Shown: positions 4,585 to 45,646, counted from the first letter of the stretch. The stretch is DNA of 64,000 nucleotides from an uncultured Acidobacteriaceae bacterium (GCA_963785315.1 CAWAUX010000013.1:434351-498350), one strand, 5' to 3'. The notes: generated by a model not told the origin, from the sequence alone. A program made the numbers and translations.

Positions 4585-7277
4585 ATGGGGAATGTATCTT
4601 TTTCTGCCTATAGACGAATCGTAGCGTTCCACCGCGTAATCTTCAGGCTGTTGTTGACGGCTGCCTGCAGCGTGACGACGGCGGCGCAAGCGGCTCCGTT
4701 GCCTACTACGACGACGCTCACGGTCTCTTCGTCTTCGGTGGCGTGGCACACGGCAGTGACTTTGACCGCTTCGGTGACGGCGAACGGTGCACCGGTAGCC
4801 GCGGGCACAGTCAATTTCTGCAATGCGTCCGCGCACGTTCTGCGAGGACACAGCTATCGTGGGAACGGCGCAGCTGGCTGGCGGAAACGCAACCCTCAGA
4901 ATCATCCCCGCGATTGGGGTCCATACGTATAAGGCAGTCTTCAGCGGGACGGCGACCGCAGCGCCCGGCGGGTCCAGCTCGCAAACGTTGACGGTAACCG
5001 GCCTCTATCCCACGACTACAGCGATTGCGGCCACCGGCAACCCGAGCGGCTATGGGCTGACGGCAACGGTGGTCGGCTACGCGAACCATCCGCCGGTGAT
5101 GGCAGGCACAGTGTCGTTTCAGGATACGAGCGCCGGCAACTACGTTCTGGGAACAGCACTCCTGGGCCCACCAACGTTCGCTCAAGGTTTCGTCCAGGCG
5201 CCGAATTCTCCAGTCCCTACCGGCAATGAGCCTGCAGCCGGCGCCACCGCAGACTTCAACGGGGATGGAAAGCCAGACTTGGCAATCATGAACTCGCTTG
5301 ACGACGCGATCGTGATTCTGCTGGGCAACGGAGACGGCACCTTCACCCAAGGCGCAACTATCCCTAACGTGACCGCCAGTAACTGCATCCCGTTCCCCTT
5401 AAACCAGCGTTCGAATTGCTCCGTGATCGCGGGAGATTTCAACCAGGACGGCAAGGCCGACCTGGCTGCGGCCAGTGACTTCGACAATACCGTGACCATT
5501 CTGCTGGGCAATGGAGATGGCACATTTGTCCCAGCAAACGGCTCCCCCATTCCCGTGGGTAATTTCCCGGAAACGGTAAAAGCCGGAGATTTCAATAATG
5601 ACGGTGTTCTGGATTTGGTGGTCGCCAATGGCAAGGACAATACCGTAAGTATTCTGTTGGGCAATGGAAACGGCACCTTCACGGCAGGCACGCCCGTTCC
5701 GGTAGCAGGATTTCCGTTTTTTACGGCGGTGGCGGACTTCAACGGCGACGGCTTGGCCGATGTAGCGGTGACCAGCGCAGACGATAACACGGTCACTATT
5801 TTGTTGGGCAACGGAGACGGCACCTTCCACCAGGCCGCCGGTTCGCCAATTCCCGGCTTCGACTACAATCCCGCCCAAGTCATCGCCGCCGATTTTAACG
5901 GCGACGGCATTCCCGACCTGGCGGTAGCAAACTACACCGCCATCGATCAGACGCCTCCCATAGACAACCAAAAGAGCAACGTGTCCGTCTTGCTGGGCAA
6001 GGGGGACGGTACCTTTACCCCTGCGGCGGGATCACCGATTACGGTGGGCTTGTACGCTACGAACGTGCTTGCCGCGGACTTTAACCAGGATGGCAAGACC
6101 GACCTGGCCGTTCTTAACCAAGGCGATGTGAACGACTTCCCGACCCAGACCTTGACCCTCCTGCTGGGAGATGGAACGGGCGGCTTCGCGGCGGCCGGAA
6201 CGCCGACCCAGCTGGGAAAAACTCCCAACGACCTGGTGGCGGCAGACTTCAACGGAGATGGCACCACGGACCTGGCCATCCCCAACATAGGAGAGTTTGA
6301 CACTACCATCCTGCTGTACCAATTCACGCAAACGGCAACTGCGAGTGTTTCGGGTATCACCATTGCCGGCACCGGTACCCACTACGTGGACGCCGTGTAT
6401 GAAGGGGATGCTTCTTTCGTCACCAGCACTTCTCCCACCATCCCTTTGCAGGGGTCGACGGTCGGTACGAGCTTGACGCTGACCGCCAGCCCTGCCGAGC
6501 AAATGATCACCATGCCGGTGACGTTTACCGCCCAGCTGGGTCCGGTTACGAGCCAGCCTTTCTTTGCGACTCCGACGGGAACGGTCACCTTCTTTGACCA
6601 GAGCGTCGGCACCCAGCTTGGCACCGCGCCCATAGGCGCGAATGGGCAAGCGGTTTTGACCGTCACCAGCATAGGTCCGGGAGTGCATAGCGTGACCGCG
6701 AGCTATGGCGGAGCCCCCGGTTTTCTGACCAGCAACTCGAATGCGGTCTCGGTCCAGATCGACGAGTTGCGCCTGCTTCGGGTAGGAAACAACAACACCA
6801 CCATCCTGCCCGGCACCACGGTGGTGTATACGATCCAGGTGCAGCCCCAGGTTGCGACGACATTCCTGTACAACGTGAGCTTCGCGGCGAGTGGTCTGCC
6901 TGCGGGCGCGACGGCGATCTTCACTCCTGCGACGCTGGCGGCGGGCGGATCCATGACGAATATCACGATGACAGTCAAGACAACAAAGACGGCCGCGAAC
7001 GAGCCACCACCGTCTCCCTTCGAACGCTTGCCGCTCGCGCTGGGCATTCTGATTCCCCTCTTGGGAACGAGGGCGGTGCGCAGGCGGTTGCGGCAGATTC
7101 CTCCATACCTGGGAGTGGCGCTGTTTGCGGTGCTCAGCCTGGCCGCAGTTGCGGGCCTGAGCGGATGTTCGGGTGCGGGCCTTTTCGCGGCGAAAAAAGT
7201 TCCCTACTCCATCACGGTTACGGCCACCGAAGGAACAGTGCCAGCGCACAGTCGAGGTGCCCCTTGCGATCCAGTAG
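4585..7277 (+). pseudogene. secreted FG-GAP/VCBS-repeat (7-blade propeller) plus Ig-like domain surface protein; two frame breaks (~4835, ~7241)
   Basis: Signal-like N-terminus and an Ig-like TTTTLTVSSSS...GTVNFCNAS in frame 1, continuing as TFCEDTAIVGTAQLAGGNATL in frame 2. Seven DFNxDGxxDLAV repeats each followed by ILLGNGDGTF. Near 7241 a third frame gives ...TEGTV-QRTVEVPLAIQ with stop 7275-7277. The ORF-track extension to 7480 is probably out of frame. Confidence 0.65.
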
Positions 7278-7308
7278 ACGGAGTGCGGGGCGCGTTGTGG
7301 GAAAAGGT

Positions 7309-7929
7309 ATGCGTAGATCTTTATTATGGATGGCTACGATGCTGGGGCTTGCGCCCGGCCTTCATGGCCAGATCGCGCCGGGGGGAAGAGATTTTTCTTT
7401 GCCGCGCGCGGAGGTCTCGCTGGCCTACAGTCCGACAGAGGCGAACGCTGGGCCCGGCCAATGCGGTTGCTTTTTCATGAACGGAGCCAGCGCCGAGGGA
7501 AATTTTCGCACCTATCGCGCGTATACCACGGTGGTCGATGTAACCGCGGCCCATACCGGCCAAATCAATAACACGGGTCAGCCCTTTTCACTGATCATGG
7601 CGACCGCGGGCATGCGGCTTAATTTCAGGTTGGGTCACCAGCGGCCCGATGGATGGGATTCCTACCACAACGTCAAGCCTTTCGTACAAGCGTTGGCGGG
7701 TTTTGCCCATGGCTTTGACTCGGCTTTCCCTACCAAGTCAGGATTCATTGAATCCTCGGCTAATTCCTTTGCCCTGCTCGCGGGCATCGGGGTCGATTAC
7801 AAGTACCGAAGACATTTATCCTTCCGCCTGATCCAGGCCGATTACGGTTATACCCGGCTGCCAAACCTTGCCGGCAACGACCAGAATTTGCTGCGGATCT
7901 CTTCCGGCATCACGATCCATCTCAAGTAG
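7309..7929 (+). CDS. outer-membrane beta-barrel protein (OmpA-like barrel / porin family)
   Basis: ATG at 7309. Signal peptide MRRSLLWMATMLGLAPGLHGQ. Alternating amphipathic strands and a C-terminal ...LLRISSGITIHLK barrel-closing strand. Confidence 0.6.
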   Translation: MRRSLLWMATMLGLAPGLHGQIAPGGRDFSLPRAEVSLAYSPTEANAGPGQCGCFFMNGASAEGNFRTYRAYTTVVDVTAAHTGQINNTGQPFSLIMATAGMRLNFRLGHQRPDGWDSYHNVKPFVQALAGFAHGFDSAFPTKSGFIESSANSFALLAGIGVDYKYRRHLSFRLIQADYGYTRLPNLAGNDQNLLRISSGITIHLK

Positions 7930-8000
7930 TGGGGCCTAAGCAGGGCTCACCGGTGTTTTTGGCACATCCGACCAGACTTCCTTGAACTCCCAACAAAGGC

Positions 8001-8040
8001 GTCATCCTGAGCGAAGCGCCTCGCTCAGGATGACGATTTT
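8001..8040 (+). terminator. perfect 14-bp hairpin followed by GATTTTGTT; possible terminator and member of the GTCATCC repeat family
   Basis: GTCATCCTGAGCGA (8001-8014), loop AGCGCC, TCGCTCAGGATGAC (8021-8034), then a T-rich run. It lies 72 nt after the stop of the 7309..7929 gene. Confidence 0.4.
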
Positions 8041-8294
8041 GTTCGGGAACTAACGGAACGGATACCTTTGTACGGCGAGCCGGGGCGCACACCAGGTCGC
8101 TCGGCTACGCTCGCGATGACAAGTGGCGGGCGCTGACTCTTATTAGGGCCGTCAGGTGGATGGACGGAAAGAAACAGCGCGTCCCCCGCTTTGCTCGGAT
8201 GACACAATTGGACGCGGCAGCCCCCCTTAGCATGGGTTGAGAGGGATGGACAGATCCCAGGGCAACCAGCAGCCGTGCTGTGCAGCTGCGGATT

Positions 8295-11176
8295 TTAGAA
8301 GTTGAAGATGGCTTGAAGAAAGACACTGCGGTTCCCCGCCGTGGAGGCGCCAAAGAATCCCCCGCCTGCCAGGGACTGCGATTTGCCGAAGAACTGCGTC
8401 GACGAAAGCGTTCCGTTCGGAATTCCCAGGTTCTGATGGTTGAACAGGTTGGTCGAATACGCGGTGAGGGTCAGGTTGTACCTGCGCGAAGTAGCCTGGT
8501 CCAGGCGCCCCGGTCCCCCACGGCTTCCGCTCAGGCCACCGGGGCCGATTCCGCCGCCTCCGCCTCGGCCTCCACCCCCACCTCCGCCACCCGACCGTGC
8601 AGCACGAGCTACCTTCTACTTTGGGGCCAATGCCGATCACTTTACTTACACGCATGTTCAAGCTGACATTCGTAGGACCGGTGCCGAGACCGTAGGGGAT
8701 GATCTTTTCGTTGGTGCCGAAGGGGTTCGAATTCAGACAGCCATATTGCGTGTCCACGACGTCTGGTTCGCTGCAACTCGCCGCAAACGTCGGCCGGGCG
8801 TTGAACTGGTTGTTCCTGGTCAGATCGCTGCCGGTGGTCACGTTGTAGGGGGTTCCAGAGTTGTAGGCGAAAAAGGGAGTCAGCGATACACCGTAGGGCG
8901 CGGAGAAGTTCCCCAGGATCACGAAACGGTTGTGAACATCGAAGCTGCTTCGTCCATAGTCAAGCCCTGGATTCTGAGCGACGGAAGGAGTGTAGGTGAC
9001 TCCATTGGTATCGGCTTTCGCGGTGGTGTAGGTGTAGAAAGTGAAGAAGCTGAACCGCGGGTAACTGGCCCGTGCCGGAAACGATGATCTGGTCTTGCCG
9101 GTAGACGCCTCCGGACTGGTACTGCAGGTTGTTCTCTTGCGCGGGTGGAAGCGGGGTGGCCGGATAGATGCCGAGATCCGCAGTGGCAAACTCCGGAGCT
9201 CCGATATTGTTGGTTAGGTATTGGTGCACGCCTCGTCCGTAAAGATAAGTCACATTCGCGGTGATCCTCTTGGCCACCTGACGATCAAGGCCCACGGCTA
9301 ACTGCAGGTCTGTGGCGGCATGGAAATGCGGATCGAGGGTGTAGAGCGTCTGCGCTGTGTTGGCATTCACTACCGCAACCGGGTTGACCGGAAATGCCGG
9401 ATTCGTGATGGTGGAAACCTTCTGGTTGATTCCGTTCTGATGGATCGCCTGGATGATGTAGGGCGTGCCTGCGTTGGATCCGAAACTGTTGGGCACGGTG
9501 AAGCGCTGGTAGAACCAGCCGTATCCTGCGCGCAGCACCGTCTTTGGCGGGTGCTTGGAATCGCCGTGCCCCAGGGCGTAAGCAAATGACAAGCGCGGCG
9601 CCCAGTCACTTTTATCGTTGATCCGGTTTTGCGTTTCCCAACGCAATCCGTAGCTGAAGGTAAAGCGCTGGTTCACCTTCCAGTCATCCTGGTAAAAGAG
9701 CGCGGCATCGAACAGAATCGCGCTCGCCGTGTATTGATTAACTTCCGTCACCTGGTAGGTCTGCGGAATCTGGCTTTCATAATTCTGCACGGACTGGAAG
9801 ATGTACTGGCCGTTGGTGCCCCCATTGGTGTAGTTCGAATCGCTATCGGCGCGCAGGCGGGCGCCAAAGTTCAAGGAATGATTGCCCTCGGCGGCGGCGA
9901 AGTAGTTCTGCAATTCGTATAGGTTCTGGGTGTCACGTACGGTTCCGCCGTTGTTGCCGCCATCCACAAAGGAGCCCTGCACCGTGATGGTGGGTGAAAC
10001 ATTTTGGGCAACGTTCTGATAGTGGAAGTGGCGGTATTGAAAACGAATGTCGTCCACGATGTTCTTGCTCAGCACCAGGCTGTCACTCACCTGCACGGTG
10101 TTCTCCATGCTTTCGGTGTCGGTGGCCTGGGAGGGAAGAGCCAGGGGACCTACGCCTGCGTTGGTGGTCACCGCGCGGTAGAAATCGTAACGAAGGGTCA
10201 AGGTGTTCTTTTGGCCGAGCTGCAGGTCCAGGCGGGGGCTGATGTCGATGCGTGAACTCGGGTTGGGGTAGGCTTCATTCAAGGATGGTCCGCTGAGATC
10301 GTCCGGGTTGACCGCATCGATCACACTCACATTCTGATTGTTGCGTCCGAATGCGCTGACGTAGTACGAGGCCGTTTTGGAAATGGGACCGCCTACGCTG
10401 CCTTGCAGGTTGTAGGAGTAGTAGGACGGTTCCGGCGTCTGCAGAATCGGGTTGCGCGAGTTGAAGGAGGAGTCGTTGCCGCGGGCTTCGATCTGGCCGT
10501 GCAGCTTATCCGTGCCGGGCTTGGTGAGGATTTCTATTCGTCCGTAACCCAGGCGATCAAACTCGGCGGAAAATGGGTTCTGGTTGATACGGATCTCACG
10601 GATGGAAGATTTGGGCGGCATCTGTCCTCCGGTAAACCCGTCGATGTAGACCTCGCCCCCGTTGGGACCAGCAGCCGGTCCAGCGAGAGCCTGCAGCTGG
10701 TTCTCCAGTTCATCGGGATCGTCGGAGAGTGCATCGAGGTCTTTCCCCTTGAGCACCACCGCGTTGGCGTTTTGATCCGGGCTGGTATCGACGGTCGGCG
10801 TGTCGGCCTCGACCTGTACCTGCTGCTGCTCCATCTGGATTTGCATCGCGATGTTCAGCGTCTTGGTCTGCCCGGCGGTGACGGTGACCGAGGAGGTGAA
10901 GGGAGCAAATCCCGCCGTATTCGCATTCACGGTGTAAGCGCCGGCAGGCAGACCCTTTACCTGGTAAGAACCGGTGCCGTCTGACACTGCGCTGGAGCTT
11001 TTTCCAGAAGGCGAAGTCACTGTGACCTGTGCTTGCGGGATGACGGCGCCGCTTGGATCCAAAACCCGGCCCTGGACTGTGGCGGTTGCCCCTTGACCGA
11101 AAAGGATCTTCGGCGCGGCGAGCGCACTCAGCAGGGATACGATCAGGATCAACCAGCACTTGGTAGGTTTCATCAT
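8295..11176 (-). pseudogene. TonB-dependent receptor with N-terminal carboxypeptidase-regulatory-like domain; two frame breaks (~9072, ~8605)
   Basis: Signal peptide followed by ATVQGRVLDPSGAVIPQAQVTVTSPSGKS...YQVKGLPAGAYTV. The barrel continues through three frames: ...QIIVSGTG / ASYPRFSFFTFYTYTTAKADTNG...GIGPKVEG / ...SGGGGGGGRGGGGGIGPGG...NRSVFLQAIFNF, with a terminal Phe and stop at 8295-8297 (my own translation of the third frame). Confidence 0.8.
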
Positions 11177-11332
11177 TGCCCAGAGCTGAACTGCGGCAGG
11201 ACAAATGGCAACCCAGCTTTATGGAATGGACGCACCGGCCGCACCGTAAGTTTCCTGGCCTAGAGAGGCCAAGTCTAACGAATGTCAACGATTTAGACGC
11301 TTATTTCCGATGAGGGGAAGGCCAAGAAATGT

Positions 11333-12373
11333 TTATTTGGCGAAGAAACGGTAGCGGATATTCCAATGCCCGGTCTCGCCGGGTTGGACATTCACATGAA
11401 TGTAAGCTTCCGGGCAAATGGTGGTGTGGATGGACCAGAAGTTGAGCTGAGCGATGGGAGAATCGGAGGTTTGCTCGACGCCAACCCCTGTATTTCTATT
11501 CTCAACCGTGAAATCGTAATCGGCCGGGCTGTTTGAATAACCGGTCAGATAGCTGGAAACGGCCTGCCCTGGGCCAGTGCCCACTTCCTGGACATAGACA
11601 ATGTCTTTGCCGTCAATCTTGCCGCGTGGCTCCAGGGGCCGTTTTGCCTGGGGCTCAAAGGGGAAATGGACAGCCATTCCGGGGCCAGTCGGAACATTAT
11701 CGAGCATGAAGAAGTCGTGGTCGTAGACTTCTGTGTCGATTGCCTTGGTGCCTGTGTTCTTGATGTGGTGCTCGAGTGTGAGAATCGGCTGGTGTTTATC
11801 GAGCTTGAGCGTCTTCTCATAGACATACGCGTAGCCCATGGGCGACTGCAGAGTCTGGGTGAAGGTCACCTGGTCCTTCTTGACCCGAACCTTCCATTTG
11901 CCCAAATCGACAATGGGATAGTGGAAGCCGAACTTGTACGGCGAATCATCCACTTTGCGCAGGACACCGACTCCCGGCTTGAGGAAGAGTTCACCCGGTT
12001 TCGCTTCGTTGTAGTTGATGGAGCTGAGACCGTCGCTGGAGCGAAATTCTTCTACCGGGCCGGTGATGGCATCGTTGATCAATGGATCGTAGTGATTGAA
12101 CCAAACTCCAAAATAAGTGTGGCCTTTGTAAGTGAGGCAAGGAACGACGCCCGACCAATCGAAGCGTGTCGAGCGATAGTAGCCCTTCTTGTCATCGGGC
12201 AGATACACAACTGCCTGGACCGATCCGTTGGATAGGACGGCTTTGGGAAACTCATTGTTGATGATCGAGGCGCAGGGGGAAGAAGAGTCTTTAGCAGCCT
12301 GGGCTTGGGCCGCTGGAAGTGCGGCTACGGAAATGAGCAAGGCGGCCAGGAGCAAGGACCTTCTGTTATGCAA
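11333..12373 (-). CDS. secreted hypothetical protein
   Basis: Intact 346-aa ORF with signal peptide MHNRRSLLLAALLISVAALPAAQAQA. No family recognised. Confidence 0.6.
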   Translation of the reverse strand: MHNRRSLLLAALLISVAALPAAQAQAAKDSSSPCASIINNEFPKAVLSNGSVQAVVYLPDDKKGYYRSTRFDWSGVVPCLTYKGHTYFGVWFNHYDPLINDAITGPVEEFRSSDGLSSINYNEAKPGELFLKPGVGVLRKVDDSPYKFGFHYPIVDLGKWKVRVKKDQVTFTQTLQSPMGYAYVYEKTLKLDKHQPILTLEHHIKNTGTKAIDTEVYDHDFFMLDNVPTGPGMAVHFPFEPQAKRPLEPRGKIDGKDIVYVQEVGTGPGQAVSSYLTGYSNSPADYDFTVENRNTGVGVEQTSDSPIAQLNFWSIHTTICPEAYIHVNVQPGETGHWNIRYRFFAK

Positions 12374-12475
12374 TGCGATCTCCCTCAGCGGATCTGTTGT
12401 GGCATCCCATCGTAAACCTAGCAGGCTGCCGAAAAGTCTGCACTTTGGCAGGAAAACAATACCTCAAGGGCTTTA

Positions 12476-12671
12476 GAGTCTGCGTGAGAACGGAAGAGAA
12501 ACAGCAGGTCCCTCCGCTGCGTTACGCTCCGGCCGGAATGACAATTCTGTGGGACCATTAACTGTCATCCGCCCTTTTGGGGCCATTTCCCCTGCAACAG
12601 AATTGTCATCCCGGCCGGAGCGGAGCGCAGTGGAGGGACCTGCTGTTTCCCTTCCGTTTTCACGCAGACTC
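12476..12671. repeat. long imperfect inverted repeat (two 75-nt arms, 46-nt loop) carrying GTCATCC...GAGCG modules
   Basis: Arm 12476-12550 (GAGTCTGCGTGAGAACGGAAGAGAAACAGCAGGTCCCTCC...GGAATGACAATTCTGT). Arm 12597-12671 is its reverse complement with a handful of mismatches. Confidence 0.85.
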
Positions 12672-12694
12672 AATCCTTTACGCCCGGCTAAACG

Positions 12695-12866
12695 GGCTGC
12701 AAAAGACTCCGAGATCGAGTCCCGGCGGAGCCCGAGCGAAGGTTGAGCCTCGCGCGGTCTTTGAAGGGTACGGGCTTCAGCCCGTACGCAAATGCTTTGC
12801 AATGAATTCGGCTTTAGCCGCTGAGGCATTCCTTCCGCTCCAAATAGCGAGTTTTTCCGCAGCTTG
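12695..12866. repeat. MITE-like palindromic unit of the GCTGCGGAAAA / GGCACGGCTTCAGCCGTGCC family
   Basis: GCTGCAAAAGACTC near 12697. Hairpin GTACGGGC-TTCA-GCCCGTAC at 12768-12787. GGCTTTAGCCGCTGAGG and terminal GAGTTTTTCCGCAGC. The same modules recur at 28887-28970 and 29451-29575. Confidence 0.55.
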
Positions 12867-15014
12867 CTAGGGGAGGGCATAGGCCACGTAGACGCCACCG
12901 GAGGGCTTCTTGCTGGTTTGCCCTCCACTGGCGGCGATCACAACATATTGTTTGCCGTCCACCATGTAGGTCGCAGGTGTCGCCAGGCCGGCAAAGGGTA
13001 GTTGCGTTTCCCATAGCAGCTTTCCCGTGTGGCTGTCGTAGGCGCGAAATTTCTCGTCGAACACAGTGGCCCCAATAAACAACAGGCCTCCCGCGGTGAC
13101 GACCGGGCCACCGTAGTTATCTGATCCGGTGGTGGGCATGCCTTTAGCCATCAGCTCAGGGTATTCACCAAATGGAATCTTCCACAGATACTTTCCGGTA
13201 TTCATGTCAATCGCGCTGAGTGTTCCCCAGGGCGGCGCGGTTGCCGGATAATCTTCGGGATCAAGAAATCGACGAAAGGCAATCGTCTTGTAGGGCATGT
13301 CGTTCTTGGCGCCATTGTCCGCTGCCTCCGCGGCTACCGGGGCGGCAGAGGGACGCCGCTGCTGCTGCTGCGGAGCCCTGGTCAGATAGTGCACAACGGC
13401 CTCGACCTGCTCGTCACTCAGGCTGTTGAAGGGCGGCATGCGGCCCTTGCCGGAACGGATAGTGGCGGCAATTTCCTGGTCGGTGAGGATACCCTCAATC
13501 CCACGCAAGGCAGGAACGGAAGGCGGCGTGCCGGCCCGGTTGATGCCGTGGCACATGCTGCATTGGTTCTGATAAATCTTTTCACCCAGGCTCCCCGGCG
13601 GAGGAGGAACCGTCAGACCAACCAGCCATGCTGTGTCGTTGGCGTTGACGTAGAAAACCCCGGTTGTTGGATCGACGGCCGGACCGCCCCATTCGCCGCC
13701 GCCGGCAAATCCCGGCATGTCGATGGTCAGCTTGTCCACGCTGGGAGGAATGAACTGCCCGCCGGCAATAAATGTATTGAACTGCTTGAGCGCCCAGGCG
13801 TGCGCTTCTGGCGTGCGGTTGGTCAGGGTGTCTGCTGTGACGCTCTGGTGGGTGTAGGGCTCCGGCGCAGTGGGTAGCCATTGCCTGGGCGATGTAACCT
13901 CGCCCGGGACATTGCTCGCCGGATAGGCCGACTCCTTGAGCGGGAAAGAGCGGCTTGCCTGTCGTGCGATCAAGGAGGAAGACAAAACCTGACTTGGTGG
14001 TCTGGGCGATGGCGTCCACGCGCTTGCCGTCCCGCGTGACCGTCAGCAGCGCTGGGGGCGCAGGAAAATCGCGGTCCCACAGATCGTGGTGCACTCCCTG
14101 GAAATGCCAGATGCGTTTGCCGGTCTCAGCATCGAGCGCAAGCAGCGTATCGGCAAAGAGATCGTCACCTACGCGATCGCCGCCATAGAAGTCGAAGACG
14201 GCAGAACCGGTGGGCACATACACGATGCCGCGTTTGGTATCGACCGTCATGCCGGCCCAGTTGTTTGCGGCGCCGGCATTCTTCCAGGCGTCTTTGGGCC
14301 AGGTGTCATAGCCGAATTCGCCCGGATGCGGGATGGTGTGAAAGGTCCAGCGCACAGCGCCGGTGTGCACATCGAAGGCGCGGACGTCACCCGGAGGCGC
14401 GGGATGGGTTTCGGGATTCTGTCCGCCCACGATGATCAGGTCTTTGTAAACCGTTCCCGGCGTGCTGAGCGAAACAGATTGCTCCTGGTAGGGTTCGCGC
14501 AAGCCTTTGCGTAGATCGATGGAGCCGTTCTCGCCGAAGCTTGGTATCAGCTTTGCCGGTGGTCGCGTCCAGCGCAAAGAGAAAATTGCGCAGAGGAACG
14601 AAGATACGGCTGTCATGGCCATCGGTCCAGTAGGAGACGCCGCGCGATCGGGCGAAACCTGGAACCGTTGCTTCCCACTTCCAAAGCAGTTTGCCCGACG
14701 CTGCATCGAGCGCAATCACCCCATGCGACGGCGTAGTGGTGTAGAGAACCTTGCCCACGATAATGGGCGACGCCTCCAAATCTCCGCCCGATTCTCCGGT
14801 GTCGTACTTCCACGCCACGACCAGATCTTTCACGTTGCTGCGATTGATCTGGGCCAGGCTGGAGTAGTGGTCTTGCGCGTCCTGGCCGCCATAGACGGGC
14901 CAGTCAGATTGCTGTGCGGACGTACCCGCTGCTGCACCGAATAGATTCTGAGGGCCCAGAGACGCAAACGCCCAAGCCCAAAGCGATCGCCGCGACTACC
15001 CGTTTTCTGCTCAT
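12867..15014 (-). pseudogene. PQQ-dependent dehydrogenase beta-propeller with inserted c-type cytochrome domain; at least three frame breaks
   Basis: ATG at 15014 after AGGGAG. The coding sequence runs through four frames: MSRKRVVAAIALGLG.. / ..QNLFGAAAGTSAQQSDWPVYGGQDAQDHYSSL...[10 protein letters not shown] / [17 protein letters not shown]...[10 protein letters not shown] / [15 protein letters not shown]...CSMCHGINRAG...VDGKQYVVIAASGG. Breaks at ~14975, 14552-14554 and ~13945. Confidence 0.75.
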
Positions 15015-28849: not shown

Positions 28850-28886
28850 GGTGTTTGCCCAGTTCGCTATACGGGCCGACTAAAGA

Positions 28887-29600
28887 GACTGCGGAAAAAC
28901 TCTCCACGAAGGGCACGGCTTCAGCCGTGCCGCACAAGCCGTATGCGAGACCCGGCTTTAGCCGCTGAGGTACGGCTTTTCACGGGTAATTCCGTGCAGG
29001 CACAAGCTTGCAGAAGCGTACCTCAGGGGCTAAAAGAGTCTGTGTGGGAACTCGAAAATAGACCTCGAATCGGACCCAGGCCCATAGGGCCGGTAGCCAA
29101 AATGTGCCCAGCCCGGGAGGGCTGGGACATCGATTCCGCAACAACGTCCGAGCGCCGGAGGTGCGGCACCGCGAATGTTGGTAGTGCCGCGCCTCCAGCG
29201 CTCCATAATCTTGCCGATCCCTATCCCAGCCCTTCTCCGGATTTCCTGCACGGGGCGCCACCAACATCCGCGTGTGCGGCTTTCGTTAAGGAAAGCCGCA
29301 TGAAGTGCGCCAACGCCAGCAAGGTCCACAGGAAATCCGGATCCGGGCTGGGCTGCGCAGTTTGGCTACCGGCCCTACGGGCCTGGGTCCGATTTGCGGT
29401 TCATTCCCGGTTGTCACACCCCCTCTAAAGGCCGTCATTGCTGTACTTTTTACGGCACGGCTGAAGCCATGCCCTTCGTACAACGCGTTTTTCCGCAGCC
29501 TTTTAAAGCCCTCATAGCTGTAGCTTTTTGTGGCACGGCTGAAGCCGTGCCCTTCGTAGCGAGTTTTCCGCAGCCTTTTTCGCCCGCACCTACCTAACCG
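28887..29600. repeat. cluster of palindromic intergenic repeat units in both orientations
   Basis: GGCACGGC-TTCA-GCCGTGCC hairpins at ~28912-28931, and in the opposite orientation at ~29455-29474 and ~29533-29552. They are flanked by GCTGCGGAAAA(A)CTC / GAGTTTTCCGCAGC. GGCTTTAGCCGCTGAGG at ~28954. The same modules occur at 12695-12866. Confidence 0.75.
29064..29395. repeat. MITE-like element with ~33-bp terminal inverted repeats and an internal 9-bp hairpin
   Basis: GAATCGGACCCAGGCCCATAGGGCCGGTAGCCAAA (from 29067) against TTTGGCTACCGGCCCTACGGGCCTGGGTCCGATT (from 29361). Internal GCGGCTTTC-GTTAAG-GAAAGCCGC at 29276-29299. No coding capacity. Confidence 0.45.
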
Positions 29601-29668
29601 CGGAGGTCCCACACAAACGCTGAAAGCTCACATTCTTCCACCGTGGTGGTACTCTCGGTCGGAAGAGA

Positions 29669-30568
29669 ATGGCGCGGGAGAGTTCCTTCATGAAGCTGTT
29701 GGCCAAGTTCAATCTCATCCTACTGGTTATTTTCGGGGCAGGCGGGCTGCTTATCTGCCAACTCGCTTACAGCTTTCTGATCCGCAACGCCCGGCGCGAA
29801 GTTCTTGCCCAAGCTGAACTCATGATGGCCGGGACCAGAGCGGTGCGCGATTACACAGCGGATGATCTCTCGCCGCTGTTGCAGCAGAATCCACGCCATA
29901 AAGTAAGGTTCCTGGCCGAGACTATCCCCTTCTTCGCCGCCACAACCACGTTCAACAAGGTGCGCAAGAGCTATCCGGAGTACTCCTACAAAGAAGCTAC
30001 GCTCAACCCGACAAATCCCGAAGATCGCGCCTCTGATTGGGAAGCCGATGTCATTCGTGGGCTACGCGATCATCCTGAGCAGCAACAGGTGGTGGGCGAA
30101 CGTGATACCCCCTCCGGCCAGGCACTTTTTCTAGCCCACCCCATTAAAGTGGATCCTCCGTGCATGGAATGTCACAGCGTTCCCTCGGCCGCACCCCAGG
30201 CTATGCTCACCGTCTATGGTTCTGCCAATGGCTTCGGCTGGAAGCCAAATGAGATCGTCGGCGCCCAGATCATCTCCGTACCCATGTCGGTGCCAATCGC
30301 GATTGCAAACCAGGCTTTTCGCAGCCTGGTGGTAGCGCTCCTGCTGACCTTGCTGCTGGCCATTCTCGCGCTCGATGCAGGTGTTTACTGGTTGGTTATT
30401 CGTCCGCTCAGGATTGTTTCTGACAGTGGAGACCGCATCAGCAAGGGGGATAAAAACGTACCCCCGCTGGTGGTGTCAGGAAAGGACGAGATCGCCAGTG
30501 TGATCGCATCCTTCAATCGCATGCGGGTGAGCCTCACCAAGGCCCTGGCCATGCTTGAAGAGAGTTAA
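29669..30568 (+). CDS. DUF3365-type c-heme sensor domain + TM + HAMP, with no output domain
   Basis: N-terminal TM segment, periplasmic domain with a CMECH heme-binding motif (DPPCMECHSVPSAAP), a second TM segment, then HAMP (IRPLRIVSDSGDRISKGD...IASVIASFNRM). The protein ends ~15 aa after HAMP. Alternative start at 29690. Confidence 0.7.
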   Translation: MARESSFMKLLAKFNLILLVIFGAGGLLICQLAYSFLIRNARREVLAQAELMMAGTRAVRDYTADDLSPLLQQNPRHKVRFLAETIPFFAATTTFNKVRKSYPEYSYKEATLNPTNPEDRASDWEADVIRGLRDHPEQQQVVGERDTPSGQALFLAHPIKVDPPCMECHSVPSAAPQAMLTVYGSANGFGWKPNEIVGAQIISVPMSVPIAIANQAFRSLVVALLLTLLLAILALDAGVYWLVIRPLRIVSDSGDRISKGDKNVPPLVVSGKDEIASVIASFNRMRVSLTKALAMLEES

Positions 30569-31359
30569 GCCGACCTCCGGCAGGAAGCCAGGAACTTAGC
30601 CCGGTCCGCGCTCGAATCAATCTCCTGCGCAACCAGGGCACAAAGATCGGCGACAGAGGTGCAGCGTTTGGCGGCCCGCCTAACCACAATTTCGGCGATG
30701 GGACCGATGTAGGCTGCAAGCTCGCGGCCGACTCGTTCGAGGATGGCTCTCTCGATCCCGGCAATCGCGGTTGGCTCGGCTTCGGCAACAGGCTTCTGCA
30801 TCAGAGCGGCCGGCAGCGGGGTGCTACCGGAAGAGGGGGTTTGCAGGGGAACCTGTTCCCCCGAGCCTCCCATATAAGGCCGTAATGCCTGGATCAGCAC
30901 CCGGACGTCCGACTTCCAGCGCGCATGGGTTAATTCAACCGCGTTTCTGTAAGCCAGCTCCCGCAAATCGGCAGGAAGCTGGTCGGCGCGCGGCATCCTG
31001 GCGCCGCGAACCAGGACCGGTACTACAGGAATATCCCGTCGGAGAGCCGATGCAATCTCCAGCCGAACAAAGTCCGTTTCCTCCTCAAGACGTCTTTGAC
31101 CGGAGGCGTTCTTCGACTCCAGCCAGTCCCGCCCCACCACCGCCAGCAGCACACTGCATTTGTGGATGGACTCGTCAATTGCTTTTCGGAAATCACGGCC
31201 GGGCTGAATCGCATTCACATCCATGAACACAGATCCTTCCTGGAAGGTCTGTGCCAGGTCGTCGGAAAGGCGGCCGGCCTCACCCTCAGAATCGTCGCGG
31301 CGATAGCTGATGAAGATCGTCTGCAGGTCAGAGCTCCTGGGGAGTAAGTCCCCCTTCAT
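30565..31359 (-). CDS. TIR-domain protein with Pro/Ser linker and small helical C-terminal domain
   Basis: IFISYRRDDSEGEAGRL...VFMDVNAIQPGRDFRKAIDESIHKCSVLLAVVGRDW...ETDFVRLEIASALRRDIPVVPVLV is a bacterial TIR_2-type pattern. C-terminus ...GRELAAYIGPIAEIVVRRAAKRCTSVADLCALVAQEI. ATG at 31359 preferred; the ORF is open to 31455. Confidence 0.8.
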   Translation of the reverse strand: MKGDLLPRSSDLQTIFISYRRDDSEGEAGRLSDDLAQTFQEGSVFMDVNAIQPGRDFRKAIDESIHKCSVLLAVVGRDWLESKNASGQRRLEEETDFVRLEIASALRRDIPVVPVLVRGARMPRADQLPADLRELAYRNAVELTHARWKSDVRVLIQALRPYMGGSGEQVPLQTPSSGSTPLPAALMQKPVAEAEPTAIAGIERAILERVGRELAAYIGPIAEIVVRRAAKRCTSVADLCALVAQEIDSSADRAKFLASCRRSA

Positions 31360-31482
31360 ATTGCAATCCTGGTTGAGTTTACGCCCAGTGCACCGGGCCG
31401 GGTAAGATACCTCCATTGGTACGATACCCAAGCCACCTATTAGGGACCCAGGCATCCTGTTGGGGAAAACGCTGGATGCGCG

Positions 31483-32640
31483 ATGTCCGGAATTGGGCCA
31501 ATATACTCAAGATGCCGATTCGAACGGGAACAACGTGCCCTCATGCCTGAGACCACAGACCAGCACAAGCAGGCAATCCTGGAACTTGAGGCTCTCATCC
31601 TTGGCGACGGAGATACTTCGGAGCGCAGTGGGCTGCTTGGTCGACGATATAAAGCTCTGTACGAAGATTCCCACGATGCAGAAGCCAGATCAGTTTTTTT
31701 GAATAAGGCCATCTTCTCTTTTGAGCGAGCGATGATGCTCGATGCGAATGACTATCTGCCGCCCTGCAGCTTGCCCCGTCTGTACCGGGAGAGGCAGTGG
31801 GAGGGCGACGAGATGAGAGCCTTGACCGCGGCTAACAATGCCCTCCTGGCTGGTGAGCGTTGGCTTAAGCGCAACCCAGCCGATCCCATGGTGGCTCCCA
31901 TGCTACTTGGCGCCGCGTTTGACGCGGGCGATATTTTGCGCGCCGAGAAGCTGCTGCATGCGCAGACGGGTCCACCTCTCGATACGCTTCCAGCAAGCAT
32001 TCCGGATTTGCGCAGATCGCTGTCGCTTCTCAACGACGCCGCGACCAGCACAGCGATGGCTTCAATCCTCGGTGGCTTGCAGCGATTATTGGACCCGAAC
32101 GGCACAGTCCTCGCGTTGGCGGGCAGACGCATCGACGCCCCAGGCGCGGAGGAACGTAGATTTCCTCCCGAGAATGAAGCCCTGGTAGCGGTTCGCATCC
32201 GTAATATGATGGTCTCCGCCGCGAGCCAGGCAGTGGTGTGTTCGGCTGCCAGTGGGGCGGATATTCTTGCCCTTGAAGGCGCAGCGCAACTAGGGCTGGG
32301 GCGGCGTGTGGTGCTTCCGTTTTCGAGGCAGCAATTTCGCGCAACCTCGGTGGCTGATCGTGGCGAAGACTGGGGGCGCCGCTTGGACGCGATTCTGCAA
32401 CAGATGCAGAGTAAAGACATTCTGGAGTTGAATCTTCAGGGCGGCGACAATGAGGCTTATGCAACCGTGAACTCAAAAATCATAGACGAGGCCGTGGGGT
32501 GGGCATCGACGACCGGCCGTCGCGCGCTGGCGATGGTTGTTTGGAACGGATTCAGCCGAGGTGCAATGGACCTGACGGACGGATTTAGGGCAGTTGCAGC
32601 CGACAGAAAATTGGAAGTGATCCCAGTAACTACGCTCTGA
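31483..32640 (+). CDS. TPR-like (C-terminal half of DUF4071 / ASK-type TRAF-binding region) + SLOG/LOG-like Rossmann domain protein
   Basis: N-half: SGLLGRRYKALYED...AMMLDANDYLPPCSLPRLY...PMVAPMLLGAAFDAGD resembles DUF4071. C-half: VLALAGRRID..., VVCSAASGADILALEGAAQLG, RRVVLPF and AMVVWNGFSRGAMDLTDGF resemble the GGxxGaD and PGGxGT loops of SLOG-superfamily folds. Assignment by motif recall only. Alternative start at 31543. Confidence 0.55.
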   Translation: MSGIGPIYSRCRFEREQRALMPETTDQHKQAILELEALILGDGDTSERSGLLGRRYKALYEDSHDAEARSVFLNKAIFSFERAMMLDANDYLPPCSLPRLYRERQWEGDEMRALTAANNALLAGERWLKRNPADPMVAPMLLGAAFDAGDILRAEKLLHAQTGPPLDTLPASIPDLRRSLSLLNDAATSTAMASILGGLQRLLDPNGTVLALAGRRIDAPGAEERRFPPENEALVAVRIRNMMVSAASQAVVCSAASGADILALEGAAQLGLGRRVVLPFSRQQFRATSVADRGEDWGRRLDAILQQMQSKDILELNLQGGDNEAYATVNSKIIDEAVGWASTTGRRALAMVVWNGFSRGAMDLTDGFRAVAADRKLEVIPVTTL

Positions 32641-42132: not shown

Positions 42133-43800
42133 GTGGCTGATCTTGCAAAATGGAATGTCCATGGACGGGTGGCAAGCCTGAGGACCGAGTTGGCGGAATG
42201 GGATCTGCATTCCGGATACTGGAAGCCTGCTGGGCACTTTACCGTCGCCACGTTCCGTCGTGACGGCGCCATCAGCAGCACGGATGGCTACAATCCGGAC
42301 GGATCCGTGGCTCACTCGCGATGGATCTATGACGAGTTCGGGCGGCTGAGGGAGAGCCACTCGTGGATGAATGACGACACCCCGCACAGGTCTCTGTATC
42401 TTTACGACGACGCCGGCCGGCATTTGAGAACCTTCGCAGTGAGCCCGGACGTCGCCGAAACGGACGTGGAGACCAGCAGCTACGATGCCGAAGGCAGGCG
42501 CACTAAGGTGTCGGTCTTCGGTTCTCGGGCAGGCAATGTCTCCTACTCTATCGAAGGGACGAACATGGGCTTGGGCGCACCCGGCGCCGTCAGGGTGGTG
42601 ATCACCTATGACCACAATGACCTCCCGGTCAAAGAGGTCTTTGAGGATGCGAAGCAGAACCCGCTCCGGCAAGTGATCATGAGACGCGACAACGCGGGGA
42701 GACTGGTCAAGGTTGAGATACACATGGGTGGCCCGTCAATGTTCAGCATGTTCGGCCAGAGCGACCAGCCGATCTCGGCAGAGGCGGACAAAGCCCTGTC
42801 GTTGATGATGGGATCGCTTGGGGGGATCTTTTCAGAGACCAACTATGCTTACGATACCCAGGGCCGGCTTATTGAACGAACGGGCCGATTCTTGAGCCCG
42901 GATCCGCTGGGTGGTAGTCTTGCCAACCCGCAAACGCTGAACAAGTATGCTTACGCAGTCAACAATCCTCTCAAGTTCGTCGATCCCACAGGACTGTATC
43001 ACTGCGTTTGGTCGGAAAGCTCAGGCGGTTTCGATGAAGACGATACGCCGGAGAACGGTGGGGCGACGCAACAGCAGTGCTCCGAACAGGGCGGAGAGTC
43101 ATGGTCTCCTGACCCCGGGGACTTGTCCGCGCCGAGCAATACTGCCAATTTTCAGATAGGAACCGGAGGATCCAATTCTGGCCAACAGAACGGCCAAAAC
43201 GGATCGAATGGCGCGTTTGATTCCAACAGCGCAGCCGCCCAGCTTTTTGGAGCGCAAGGGGCACCCTATTGGGTCGGCGCTAATCAGTTCGTTACAAACG
43301 CCACCATTGGCTACACAGGTATGTATGGGGCTGTGCTTGGAGCCCCCGCAGCCTATTCGGGAGCTGTAAGCGCGGCTGCTAGGGGTTTTGGCTGGTACTA
43401 CGGGTATACGGGTGCCAGCGGCGTAGTTCTTGGCACCTTTGCGGATGACTACCAGGGGGTGGCTCAATCTATTGGGGCCAACTATTTGAATGCCCCAACG
43501 GGGGTATACAACTTCTTCAATAATGCTGATGAGTGGTGGACCCTTAACCAGGGATTTCTGGAGTCATCTATTTTCAGAGGACAGCAATTCTACCTCAGCT
43601 CCGAACCGATGGGCACTGGGGGGTTTTATATGGAGATGCTGTATCTTCAAAGTCGCGGAATCAGACTGTCCAGCAGTGGCCGCGCGCGCACCTGGCGTAC
43701 TGAGCAGCGATGCTCGGCCGGCTTGCCGCGAATCTCTTCCTCGATTCCGTACAGTGCTCCGATGCGCAGCATCGCCTCGGTGGTCGTGGGCGATGCATGA
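42133..43800 (+). CDS. chimeric YD-repeat protein fused to an RHS core tip and C-terminal toxin domain (CT1); true 3' end lost at the IS66 junction (~43655)
   Basis: YD repeats (YDEFGRL, LYDDAGRH, SYDAEGRR, YAYDTQGRLIERTG), then GRFLSPDPLGGSLANPQTLNKYAYAVNNPLKFVDPTGL (RHS-associated core end), then ~225 aa of unrecognised CT. The last 46 codons are antisense read-through into IS66 tnpC. GTG start without an obvious RBS. Confidence 0.7.
   Translation: MADLAKWNVHGRVASLRTELAEWDLHSGYWKPAGHFTVATFRRDGAISSTDGYNPDGSVAHSRWIYDEFGRLRESHSWMNDDTPHRSLYLYDDAGRHLRTFAVSPDVAETDVETSSYDAEGRRTKVSVFGSRAGNVSYSIEGTNMGLGAPGAVRVVITYDHNDLPVKEVFEDAKQNPLRQVIMRRDNAGRLVKVEIHMGGPSMFSMFGQSDQPISAEADKALSLMMGSLGGIFSETNYAYDTQGRLIERTGRFLSPDPLGGSLANPQTLNKYAYAVNNPLKFVDPTGLYHCVWSESSGGFDEDDTPENGGATQQQCSEQGGESWSPDPGDLSAPSNTANFQIGTGGSNSGQQNGQNGSNGAFDSNSAAAQLFGAQGAPYWVGANQFVTNATIGYTGMYGAVLGAPAAYSGAVSAAARGFGWYYGYTGASGVVLGTFADDYQGVAQSIGANYLNAPTGVYNFFNNADEWWTLNQGFLESSIFRGQQFYLSSEPMGTGGFYMEMLYLQSRGIRLSSSGRARTWRTEQRCSAGLPRISSSIPYSAPMRSIASVVVGDA
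42823..42884. repeat. left copy of a 62-bp direct repeat (61/62 identical to 50783-50844)
   Basis: GGGATCTTTTCAGAGACCAACTATGCTTACGATACCCAGGGC(C/T)GGCTTATTGAACGAACGGG. The single mismatch is 42865 C against 50825 T. Confidence 0.95.
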
Positions 43801-44939: not shown

Positions 44940-45287
44940 TCACACCGCAAGCTCAGGCGTCCAGGTTCTCTTCGGGCTGCGCCAGTCGATGCCTTCCAGC
45001 AACATCGAGAGCTGCGCACGCGTCAGCAAAACGGTCCCTTCTGTGGCTTGTGGCCAGATGAAGCGACCCTTCTCCAGACGCTTGGCGAATAGACATAGGC
45101 CGTCTCCATCGAACCAAAGCAGTTTTACGATGTCACCTCTACGACCGCGGAAAACAAACACGTGACCGGAAAATGGCTGCTGCTGCAGAACCGTCTGCAC
45201 CTGCGCACTCAATCCATCAAACCCGCGGCGCATATCCGTCACGCCGGCTGCAAGCCAGATCTTCGTTCCAGTACGAAGTTCGATCAC
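44940..45287 (-). CDS. tnpB: IS66 Orf2 (TnpB)
   Basis: KIWLAAGVTDMRRGFDGLSAQVQTVLQQQPFSGHVFVFRGRRGDIVKLLWFDGDGLCLFAKRLEKGRFIWP is the canonical IS66 TnpB pattern. Confidence 0.9.
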   Translation of the reverse strand: MIELRTGTKIWLAAGVTDMRRGFDGLSAQVQTVLQQQPFSGHVFVFRGRRGDIVKLLWFDGDGLCLFAKRLEKGRFIWPQATEGTVLLTRAQLSMLLEGIDWRSPKRTWTPELAV

Positions 45288-45646
45288 TTGCGCAAGCTCT
45301 CCAAGATCGTGCGTAGCAAGGCGGGATCAGCGCCACTCTCGATGCTGATCAGCGCACGGCCCTGAAGCTCGATGTGAATGCATCCAGAGTTAGTCTGCGG
45401 CTTATCTCCACCAGATAGCACCACCGGAAGCAAAGACGCAGATGCTGAAGCCGGCACCGACAACTCACCCCGTTCAAACTCGCGCCGCCACTTGAATACC
45501 TGGTTCGCGTTCACCCCATGAGCTCTCGCCACCAGTGCCACGCTCGCGCCGGGCACCAACGTCAGATCAACGATCCGACGCTTCTCGGCAACTGACCGCC
45601 ATCTGCGAACACGGCGTTCCGGCACCAATCCCTCTGCCTGGTCCAT
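45284..45646 (-). CDS. tnpA: IS66 Orf1 (TnpA, HTH)
   Basis: RRWRSVAEKRRIVDLTLVPGASVALVARAHGVNANQVFKWRREF. The stop overlaps the tnpB start. Confidence 0.85.
   Translation of the reverse strand: MDQAEGLVPERRVRRWRSVAEKRRIVDLTLVPGASVALVARAHGVNANQVFKWRREFERGELSVPASASASLLPVVLSGGDKPQTNSGCIHIELQGRALISIESGADPALLRTILESLRK

Follow-up and report, generated by a model that had tools for sequence, protein, structure and literature searches.

In Thoeris of type I, the TIR protein ThsB is paired with ThsA, a SIR2-SLOG protein, and the signal is 3' cyclic ADP-ribose (3'cADPR). In a preprint of December 2025, Thoeris was widened to types I-XI, with 29 predicted configurations; type VIII, which has been validated, consists of a TIR protein and ThsI, described as 'CMP hydrolase and TPR', and uses the canonical cADPR signal, while 'SLOG Patatin' and 'SLOG and 4TM' effectors are among the predictions but did not protect E. 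coli when tested (Yirmiya et al., bioRxiv 10.64898/2025.12.03.692087). A role of TPR-S in TIR signalling was predicted by Burroughs & Aravind (2020), as cited by Yirmiya et al., and for a bacterial origin of components of the ASK signalosome Kaur et al. (2021, eLife 10.7554/eLife.70394) refer to Burroughs et al. (2015). Here we analyze a divergent gene pair in a stretch of 64,000 nucleotides from an uncultured Acidobacteriaceae bacterium (GCA_963785315.1, CAWAUX010000013.1:434351-498350; the whole stretch is called the window below). The minus-strand gene codes for a TIR protein with a DUF8082 tail, and the plus-strand gene for a 385-residue partner that combines a piece of a TPR-S region with a SLOG-like domain.

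The pair resembles type VIII Thoeris in that a TIR gene lies beside a gene whose full-length ancestor coded for a domain like DNPH1 or nucleoside deoxyribosyltransferases (NDT), followed by TPR-S. The domain content of ThsI, however, corresponds only to the first two-thirds of the 628-residue full-length protein, and the window partner has lost the hydrolase-like domain. The full-length partner adds a C-terminal SLOG domain, and in the module from which the pair stems, a patatin lipase and a Tll0287-HAMP protein come on top. The window TIR is also different, since it belongs to a TIR_2/SARM1-like lineage with a DUF8082 tail, and the two genes are divergent rather than joined in an operon. Comparison of the sequences suggests, and we hold this with middling confidence, that the pair is a reduced but functioning one, in which a TIR signal generator is accompanied by a TPR-S/SLOG ligand-binding protein without an effector of its own.

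The TIR and TPR-S/SLOG genes

Both open reading frames (ORFs) are intact. The features of the pair, in window coordinates, are these, with the evidence in brackets (dN/dS is the ratio of non-synonymous to synonymous substitution rates):

30565..31359, minus strand: TIR-DUF8082 gene, 264 residues from ATG (ORF call, Pfam TIR_2, SARM1 alignment, dN/dS)
30886..31317, minus strand: TIR domain (Pfam TIR_2), with candidate catalytic Glu133 at 31057-31059
30565..30759, minus strand: C-terminal helical tail (GIERAILERV...FLASCRRSA), PF26309 DUF8082 (Pfam on homologues, alignment)
31360..31482, no strand: divergent intergenic spacer, with a conserved block of about 40 bp at 31372-31412 (blastn against L007)
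31483..32640, plus strand: truncated TPR-S/SLOG gene, 385 residues, 5' deletion derivative of a gene for about 628 residues
31510..31527, plus strand: deletion junction, where homology to full-length codon 251-256 begins (blastn, tblastn)
31525..32088, plus strand: residual helical TPR-S region, residues 15 to 202 approximately (PF20308; AlphaFold2 helices 6-203)
32089..32637, plus strand: predicted SLOG-superfamily alpha/beta domain, residues 203-385 (AlphaFold2, Foldseek, invariant residues)

Related loci and database proteins are cited by L and P numbers. The spacer measures 123 or 183 bp, depending on whether the partner starts at 31483 or at 31543. A search of the spacer gave no match to a sigma-70-like promoter, a result that is uninformative for Acidobacteria.

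The minus-strand frame is open from 30565 to 31455, which allows for at most 296 residues. Its first ATG, at 31359 (MKGDLL), gives the 264-residue form, and database protein P0121, 99% identical to the window protein, has the same length. Pfam TIR_2 (PF13676) matches residues 47-166 of the long frame (E=3.8e-13; score 50.4 bits, cut-off 28). When the protein was compared with PDB entries by phmmer, SARM1 TIR domains were the only matches (E about 5e-5). The alignment places DFVRLEIASAL of the window opposite DWVHKEIVTAL of SARM1, and Glu133 opposite the Glu of the KEIVTAL segment, which we take to be the catalytic E642. Of the 13 relatives first aligned, 12 have the motif unchanged; the TIR protein of L072, which was added later, reads DFLRLELVSAL, and it retains the Glu, as do all aligned relatives. 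A Pro/Ser-rich linker and a helical tail follow, and precomputed annotation of close homologues identifies the tail as PF26309 (DUF8082). An initial annotation, made from the sequence alone, had described two intact divergent genes around a shared region of about 120-180 bp, a bacterial TIR domain with a candidate catalytic Glu, a Pro/Ser linker and a helical tail, and all of this holds.

Gene callers start the TIR protein of many relatives at MFMDV, which leads to calls of 218-220 residues and raised the suspicion that these TIR domains are truncated. We rejected this, as the beta-A region lies in frame upstream of the called start. Across L013, L014 and L038, the beta-A region is 100% conserved at the protein level, and its codon differences are about 10:1 synonymous to non-synonymous. 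The canonical ATG is not conserved among the relatives. A CTG/TTG codon is kept across them three codons before IFISY (at 31326 in the window, as an alternative start), and it is likely to be the start of the relatives' TIR proteins.

The plus-strand frame codes for 385 residues, or for 365 from an alternative ATG at 31543 (P0001). Pfam TPR-S (PF20308) matches residues 15-91 (E=2.9e-8; score 34.7 bits, cut-off 27.6). The match covers positions 21-93 of the 102 profile positions, the first 20 or so being missing because of a deletion. In a search of 5.8 billion proteins, forms of 365-390 residues were found only among close relatives (79-99% identity), and the more distant relatives (49-75% identity) have about 628 residues. 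The extra 250 residues form an N-terminal alpha/beta-type domain of about 170 residues, which begins MPIxVCFMxMPFGKK...NANVYYEVGVRH, and further TPR-like helices. The N-terminal domain matches the PADLOC model 'Effector TIR' (E=5e-4 for P0039, 8e-10 for a Rhodobacter homologue), and weakly also Pfam Nuc_deoxyrib_tr (nucleoside 2-deoxyribosyltransferase, E=0.03-0.08) and human DNPH1 (E about 1). Several full-length partners match PF13281 (MAP3K_TRAF_bd, formerly DUF4071), and matches to PF20308 occur as well. The ancestral partner thus consisted of a TIR/deoxyribohydrolase-like domain, TPR-S and SLOG, in this order. A phmmer search with the N-terminal domain of P0039 matched the 630-residue protein of L072 at residues 4-170 and again at residues 524-578, inside the SLOG-like domain; the internal match would fit a common TIR/DrHyd/SLOG ancestry, and is too weak to rely on.

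Homology between the window partner and its full-length relatives begins at residue 251 (nucleotide 31510, blastn against L007) or 256 (nucleotide 31525, tblastn), so that the partner holds only the C-terminal part of the TPR region, as had been noted initially for a region of DUF4071/ASK type. The deletion took the original start codon together with codons 1-250, so that the hydrolase-like domain was lost along with the initial TPR helices, and it spared the conserved block of the old intergenic region. Blastn against L007, the nearest full-length locus, shows one common deletion in the window, L011 and L012, and that of L013, where homology resumes at codon 266, is probably the same event. 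The earlier idea that a SLOG sensor has by design been placed on a TPR scaffold instead of on an effector therefore has to be given up: the partner is the stump that an N-terminal deletion has left of a 628-residue protein. SIR2, transmembrane (TM), Macro or hydrolase domains were not found in it with Pfam, PADLOC or AlphaFold2. The PADLOC model for JetA matches residues 103-287 (E=3e-5). We judged this match spurious, since it straddles helices and a portion of the alpha/beta domain and the remaining Wadjet components are missing.

AlphaFold2 models of the whole partner, based on an alignment of 73 sequences (predicted local distance difference test score, pLDDT, 88.9), show helices up to residue 203 and a beta-alpha-beta domain from there on. 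Because Foldseek searches with the whole model were swamped by TPR proteins (DprA appeared only at rank 42), residues 186-385 were modelled separately, and gave a three-layer alpha/beta fold (pLDDT 94.0, predicted template modelling score 0.91). The top nine matches to this domain in the PDB come from three structures of DprA and from the Shosta protein ShosA, with E values from 1.6e-4 to 1.4e-3 and template modelling (TM) scores of about 0.4. A molybdenum cofactor (MoCo) carrier protein, of a kind classed with the SLOG superfamily, follows at rank 21, and ThsA is absent from the top 50. The match is much tighter among predicted viral structures (BFVD), where the best one has E=6e-6, TM scores of 0.66/0.77 and a root-mean-square deviation of 2.6 A, and most of the named top matches are DprA-like, YspA/cpYpsA-related SLOG or DUF2493 proteins. 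On the strength of these models, the C-terminal domain has a predicted SLOG-superfamily fold of the DprA/YspA-like kind, and the SLOG resemblance first proposed from its loops is upheld, with DprA, ShosA and YspA as structural neighbours.

At the sequence level, an assignment to a SLOG family had to be abandoned. The JetA match aside, the last 190 or so residues match no family in Pfam, NCBIfam or PADLOC. No match to LOG, DprA, YpsA, TPALS, LSDAT or YAcAr was obtained with Pfam or NCBIfam at E<=1, and neither the single sequence nor a profile of 74 family sequences retrieved a SLOG protein from the PDB sequences. The best structural matches (DprA/Smf, YspA of the YAcAr family, DUF2493 and ShosA) are thus without sequence-profile similarity, and the partner domain differs from them by a conserved set of its own (GRRxD, G..D, S..DR, W, D.T). 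In the window protein, the conserved loops read ALAGRRID (32113), SAASGAD (32233) and WNGFSRG..D.T (32533), and in the family the conserved polar residues gather in post-strand loops (GRRxD, AxGAD, S..DR, W.G..RG..D.T). The Gly-rich loop after the second strand, S-A-A-x-G-A-D, is similar to the loop G-x-A-x-G-I-D of DprA.

A four-gene module and its recurrent reduction

Neighbourhoods were collected in two ways, by identity look-ups and by scanning 185,579 species-representative genomes. The gene for the SLOG partner adjoins the TIR-DUF8082 gene in all 17 distinct related TIR-DUF8082 loci, which represent several flanking contexts, and the two genes are therefore neighbours elsewhere as well, as the initial annotation had required for its reading. 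Its two-gene module is nevertheless incomplete. In L072 and L079, four genes are intact, coding for a Tll0287-HAMP protein (292 residues), the TIR-DUF8082 protein (68% identical to that of the window in L072), the 628/630-residue partner (57% identical to that of the window in L079) and a CapV-like patatin of about 396 residues. The patatin matches models for phospholipase effectors of cyclic-oligonucleotide-based anti-phage signalling systems (CBASS), with E=2e-41 in PADLOC and E=1.7e-33 for NCBIfam CBASS_lipase (116 bits, under the equivalog cut-off of 200), and among the 33 Acidobacteriaceae loci mapped there are 15 in which its gene is the neighbour of the SLOG gene. In 13 of the 17 TIR-linked loci, the Tll0287-HAMP gene and the TIR gene converge, at spacings from a 14-nucleotide overlap to about 35 nucleotides. 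This linkage holds over several flanking contexts and over TIR identities of 68-99%. The Tll0287-HAMP protein is a conserved member of the module.

For the complete module, we suggest a model in which the TIR protein would convert NAD+ to a signal derived from ADP-ribose, the TPR-S and/or SLOG parts of the partner would bind this signal, and the outputs would be the hydrolase-like domain at its N-terminus and the patatin lipase. In the window, the SLOG protein would most likely bind, buffer or process the product of the TIR protein, or regulate the TIR protein, rather than kill the cell.

Of the 17 TIR-linked loci, only L072 and L079 have the complete form. Eleven loci combine an intact TIR gene with a shortened partner gene (the window, L011-L014, L038, L018, L022, L025, L074 and L075), and four have a frameshift in one or both genes (L016, L027, L032 and L007). 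From the first 13 loci, it had seemed that an intact TIR gene and an intact 628-residue gene are mutually exclusive, perhaps for reasons of toxicity; L072 and L079 refute this. The partner genes have lost the following parts:

window, L011, L012 (L013 probably by the same event): codons 1-250 and the start codon
L014: codons up to 381
L038: codons 17-368
L018: codons 39-446
L022, L025, L032: codons 17 to about 449
L074, L075: further variants

At least five of these deletions are independent, and those of L074 and L075 are probably additional. Every one of them strips the N-terminal enzyme-like domain and spares the SLOG domain in an open frame. In L018 and in L022, L025 and L032, the first 16-38 codons are even fused, with the frame kept, to the SLOG domain at its first strand.

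Selection was assessed by dN/dS according to Nei-Gojobori. Between the window and L001, a syntenic relative with 88% identity, the ratio is 0.17 for the TIR gene and 0.24 for the partner gene, and about 0.08 for the flanking genes of the major facilitator superfamily (MFS), glucosamine-6-P isomerase-like and OEP types. Truncated forms show values of 0.22-0.35 for the TPR half and, pair by pair, of 0.18-0.26 for the SLOG half (0.22-0.25 between the window and other 385-residue forms); in full-length forms, the TPR half has 0.05-0.15 and the SLOG half 0.11-0.16. The synonymous distances (dS) in these comparisons range from 0.2 to 0.47. Both window genes are under purifying selection, the partner less tightly than its ancestor.

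The same data speak to the question of whether the pair is a non-functional relic, left by a defence module that is being lost, with ORFs that persist only for lack of time. Several findings favour this: the effector domain has been deleted, a patatin gene is lacking, relatives do not conserve the canonical ATG of the TIR gene, constraint on the truncated forms is 2-4 fold looser than on their full-length relatives, and the sister loci L007, L016, L027 and L032 are decaying, with frameshifts in the TIR or the partner gene. We consider this explanation rather unlikely all the same. At the dS values given, the ratios for the TIR gene and for both halves of the partner stay between 0.17 and 0.35, and the beta-A region of the TIR gene has changed mostly at synonymous positions. 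At least four species-level genomes (the window, L011, L012 and L013) and many metagenome clusters have the 385-residue form intact, and the independent deletions have all preserved the SLOG frame, several of them by in-frame joins.

The reduced pair could also be read with its roles assigned differently. The TIR protein would then be the effector, a toxin-like enzyme that depletes NAD+, and the TPR-S/SLOG protein its sensor, regulator or antidote, in a two-gene unit of the abortive-infection or toxin-antitoxin-like kind. The closest relative among known structures is indeed SARM1, an NAD+ hydrolase, and the aligned Glu is kept; a SLOG protein is always retained beside an intact TIR, whatever else has been deleted; and the divergent arrangement suggests coordinated control. 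However, the complete module contains dedicated effector-type domains (hydrolase-like and patatin), which argues for a signalling role of the TIR protein, and full-length partner genes are commonly found where there is no TIR gene. We therefore regard it as unlikely that the TIR protein is the effector.

Genomic setting and the Tll0287-HAMP gene

Around the pair, the window contains these features:

28850-29668: REP-like (repetitive extragenic palindromic) repeat region, non-coding
29669..30568, plus strand: gene for a protein with a Tll0287-like domain (CxxCH at 30161), TM segments and HAMP (Pfam; co-occurrence with TIR)
32790 onward: efflux operon, downstream of the partner gene

The initial annotation was right to place the pair between a repeat region and an efflux operon. 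It had taken this for a typical location of accessory genes, but the flanking genes, for carbohydrate use and efflux, keep a conserved synteny, which makes the setting an inherited one and not a defence island, and the Tll0287-HAMP gene lies between the repeats and the TIR gene. Its stop overlaps the 3' end of the convergent TIR gene by 4 nucleotides. According to Pfam, the encoded protein has a Tll0287-like domain, which is periplasmic and carries the haem-c motif CxxCH, besides two TM segments and a HAMP domain, and it terminates directly after HAMP, with no output domain. A crude PADLOC run over all 54 ORFs of the window detected no other defence genes; it returned weak regulator-type matches (Csa3, WYL, CARF) and one weak match to SduA/DUF4263.

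The pair might serve a physiological pathway outside immunity, in which the periplasmic c-haem Tll0287-HAMP protein would sense a redox, gas or envelope cue and control the TIR-DUF8082 protein, with the SLOG protein as intracellular receptor. The frequent convergence of the HAMP and TIR genes fits this, and so does the syntenic carbohydrate-use and efflux context, where no defence genes were detected. On the other hand, the closest relative (L001/L012) keeps the TIR/partner pair without the HAMP gene, convergent genes are not co-transcribed, one relative (L074) lies beside a bacterial gasdermin and a protease, and TIR, TPR-S, SLOG and CapV-like patatin are hallmarks of conflict systems. In our view, a purely physiological role is quite improbable. 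Equally much of a long shot, we think, is a scheme in which the c-haem-HAMP sensor would gate the TIR protein via DUF8082, thereby providing an envelope or redox input in place of direct recognition of phage by the TIR protein, and the bare SLOG proteins would act as effector-less receptors or sponges that tune or repurpose the signal. If it were true, the bare SLOG protein would be an endogenous counterpart of the Tad-type sponges of phages.

L074 (1-4975) is the only clearly defence-island-like context that we found for the module. There, a TIR-DUF8082/SLOG-only locus lies beside genes for a Bact_GSDM gasdermin, a C25-like peptidase and a Ser/Thr kinase-TPR protein. Another group of loci in Acidobacteriaceae has the 628-residue gene without TIR at a conserved site beside relA, upstream of genes for a PUA-methyltransferase and relA (L004, L017, L019-L021, L024, L026, L029, L030, L077 and L078). 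Its neighbours at this site are interchangeable: a CapV-like patatin, an nSTAND1 NTPase of about 1,570 residues or a TPR-CHAT protein of 765-925 residues. This variable island next to relA is likely to be a defence hot spot.

The repeat region contains GGCACGGCTTCAGCCGTGCC palindromes at 28912, 29454 and 29532, inside repeat units of 35-42 nucleotides, and a 51-nucleotide inverted repeat (29057-29107 and 29355-29405). The segment 28859-30578, which comprises the repeats and the Tll0287-HAMP gene, is missing from L001, and the REP-like stretch may be a cluster of miniature inverted-repeat transposable elements (MITE) or REP elements at a point of rearrangement. At 44940-45646 (minus strand) and 42133-43800 (plus strand), there are IS66-family orf1 (HTH_Tnp_1) and orf2 (TnpB_IS66, E=1e-40), with a gene for a 555-residue protein with a weak RHS-repeat match just upstream. 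The IS66 ORFs testify to the activity of mobile elements at a distance of about 12 kb.

The domain family and its relation to known systems

The C-terminal domain of the partner belongs to a family of 2,937 clusters (at 50% identity) at E<=1e-3, or 341 at E<=1e-30. Most members are stand-alone proteins of about 180 residues, and in Blastocatellia such copies mostly adjoin DUF1232, RluD-like and glycosyltransferase genes. Fusions of the domain to patatin (P0273) and to TPR-S/MAP3K_TRAF_bd (P0249) occur as well, and a single Xanthobacteraceae protein of 1,052 residues combines the domain, TPR-S and patatin (L069). In P0118, a chimeric metagenome protein of 396 residues, the SLOG-like domain is attached directly to an ECF sigma-70 factor with regions 2 and 4; the chimera is either another deletion product or a true fusion.

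Two further contexts link the domain to TIR proteins other than that of the window. In a Bryobacteraceae metagenome-assembled genome (MAG; L056), a different TIR_2 gene overlaps the gene for the C-terminal domain. Rhodobacter amnigenus (L070, NZ_JAAATX020000020, 4909-13073), a Desulfuromonadales MAG (L068) and Jhaorihella (L071) have in common a cluster of nine genes on the same strand. Genes 1-5 are ThsB_TIR, PfkB-like, TIR_2 with TGT-like, Ogg-HhH and QueC, and genes 6-9 are ThsB_TIR (overlapping gene 7), the C-terminal domain, abhydrolase with TPR-S, and TIR/DRHyd-like with TPR-S. The cluster looks like a TIR-signalling island joined to 7-deazaguanine (Dpd-like) genes; apart from single ThsB and TGT matches, PADLOC has no system model for it. 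The ThsB-like TIR of the Rhodobacter/Desulfuromonadales operon resembles a validated ThsB of type VIII (BLASTP E=3e-9).

How does the window pair relate to the catalogued systems? In logic, it is like type I Thoeris, with a TIR enzyme, a reader with a C-terminal SLOG fold and, in the full-length form, an N-terminal enzyme as output. In contrast to ThsA, however, the partner is without SIR2 and has TPR-S in between, its SLOG domain resembles the DprA/YspA type, and the window copy lacks the output domain. As to the effector of type VIII, its CMP-hydrolase/DNPH1-like domain is deleted in the window and has a weakly supported TIR/NDT-like counterpart in the 628-residue relatives, whereas TPR of the TPR-S type is present in the window partner as well, above the cut-off for PF20308. 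The predicted SLOG-patatin effectors of Thoeris have their parallel in P0273 and L069, where patatin is fused to the same C-terminal domain; in the Acidobacteriaceae module, the patatin, which matches CBASS models like the CapV effectors, is encoded by a separate gene, and this gene is absent from the window. With the N-terminal region of ASK kinases (PF13281/PF20308), the bacterial proteins share the TPR region but not the kinase, and the window keeps this region only from about residue 251 onward. Type III Thoeris, finally, has several TIR proteins and a SLOG effector, and the window locus has a single TIR gene.

It is nevertheless fair to ask whether the pair is a plain member of catalogued type I or type VIII Thoeris. 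The TIR protein has weak matches to ThsB and ThcB4 models (PADLOC ThsB1, E=7e-7 over only about 70 residues; NCBIfam type III ThcB4, 44.9 bits), and the ancestry of the partner includes the domain content of ThsI. The ThcB4 score is, however, far under the cut-off of 220, and this together with the single TIR gene speaks against membership in type III. PADLOC v2.0 and NCBIfam 20.0 have no system-specific model that matches the partner, be it truncated or full-length, and the window gene is devoid of SIR2, Macro, TM or hydrolase domains. Moreover, BLASTP gave no alignment between the window TIR and the validated type VIII ThsB, a TIR domain from a Pseudomonas scaffold. Membership in a catalogued type is thus very improbable indeed, and the alternative of the initial annotation, that the pair matches an existing defence-system model, finds no support in these collections, which capture neither the partner nor the module. 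Its main claim, an architecture outside the known Thoeris types, does not stand either, given that 'CMP hydrolase and TPR' effectors (ThsI) have been validated and SLOG-patatin effectors predicted (bioRxiv 10.64898/2025.12.03.692087). The module falls within the known diversity of TIR/Thoeris-like systems and is not a new class, and the PADLOC and NCBIfam models miss it.

Several observations weigh against a functioning signal generator and ligand-binding protein in the window. The looser constraint on the truncated forms and the decay of the sister loci have been mentioned, as have the syntenic flanks and the lack of similarity to the type VIII ThsB. Furthermore, tblastn found neither a patatin gene nor a second partner copy within the 64-kb window, and without a recognisable effector, the pair is not a complete signal-to-effector system. 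The SLOG assignment is structural, since sequence profiles reach no SLOG family. For most stand-alone members of the domain family, no gene for a TIR, TPR-S or patatin protein lies within 10 kb, so that the C-terminal domain is not tied to TIR signalling everywhere. What survives of the generator-plus-sensor proposal is the pairing of a TIR generator with a SLOG sensor, which remains reasonable because the TIR domain is bona fide, the predicted fold is that of SLOG proteins, the linkage is conserved, and the C-terminal domain occurs beside unrelated TIR proteins elsewhere.

The locus leads to a coherent four-gene module of Acidobacteriaceae that unites elements of type I, type VIII and the predicted SLOG-patatin systems. 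Acidobacteriota have barely been sampled in the cataloguing of TIR-derived nucleotide signalling, which is advancing rapidly; the supplementary tables of the Thoeris survey, two of which were available in part only, list no 'Acidobacteri' entry in the portions at hand. The C-terminal domain defines a large family, with about 2,900 clusters at 50% identity, for which the Pfam copy that we used has no model. The complete modules of L072 and L079 and the natural deletion series are more valuable objects than the window pair itself. As at least five deletions have kept the SLOG domain beside the TIR gene, under purifying selection, a selectable function of SLOG next to TIR is indicated, and the series amounts to a natural dissection that marks the boundary of the SLOG domain for experiments.

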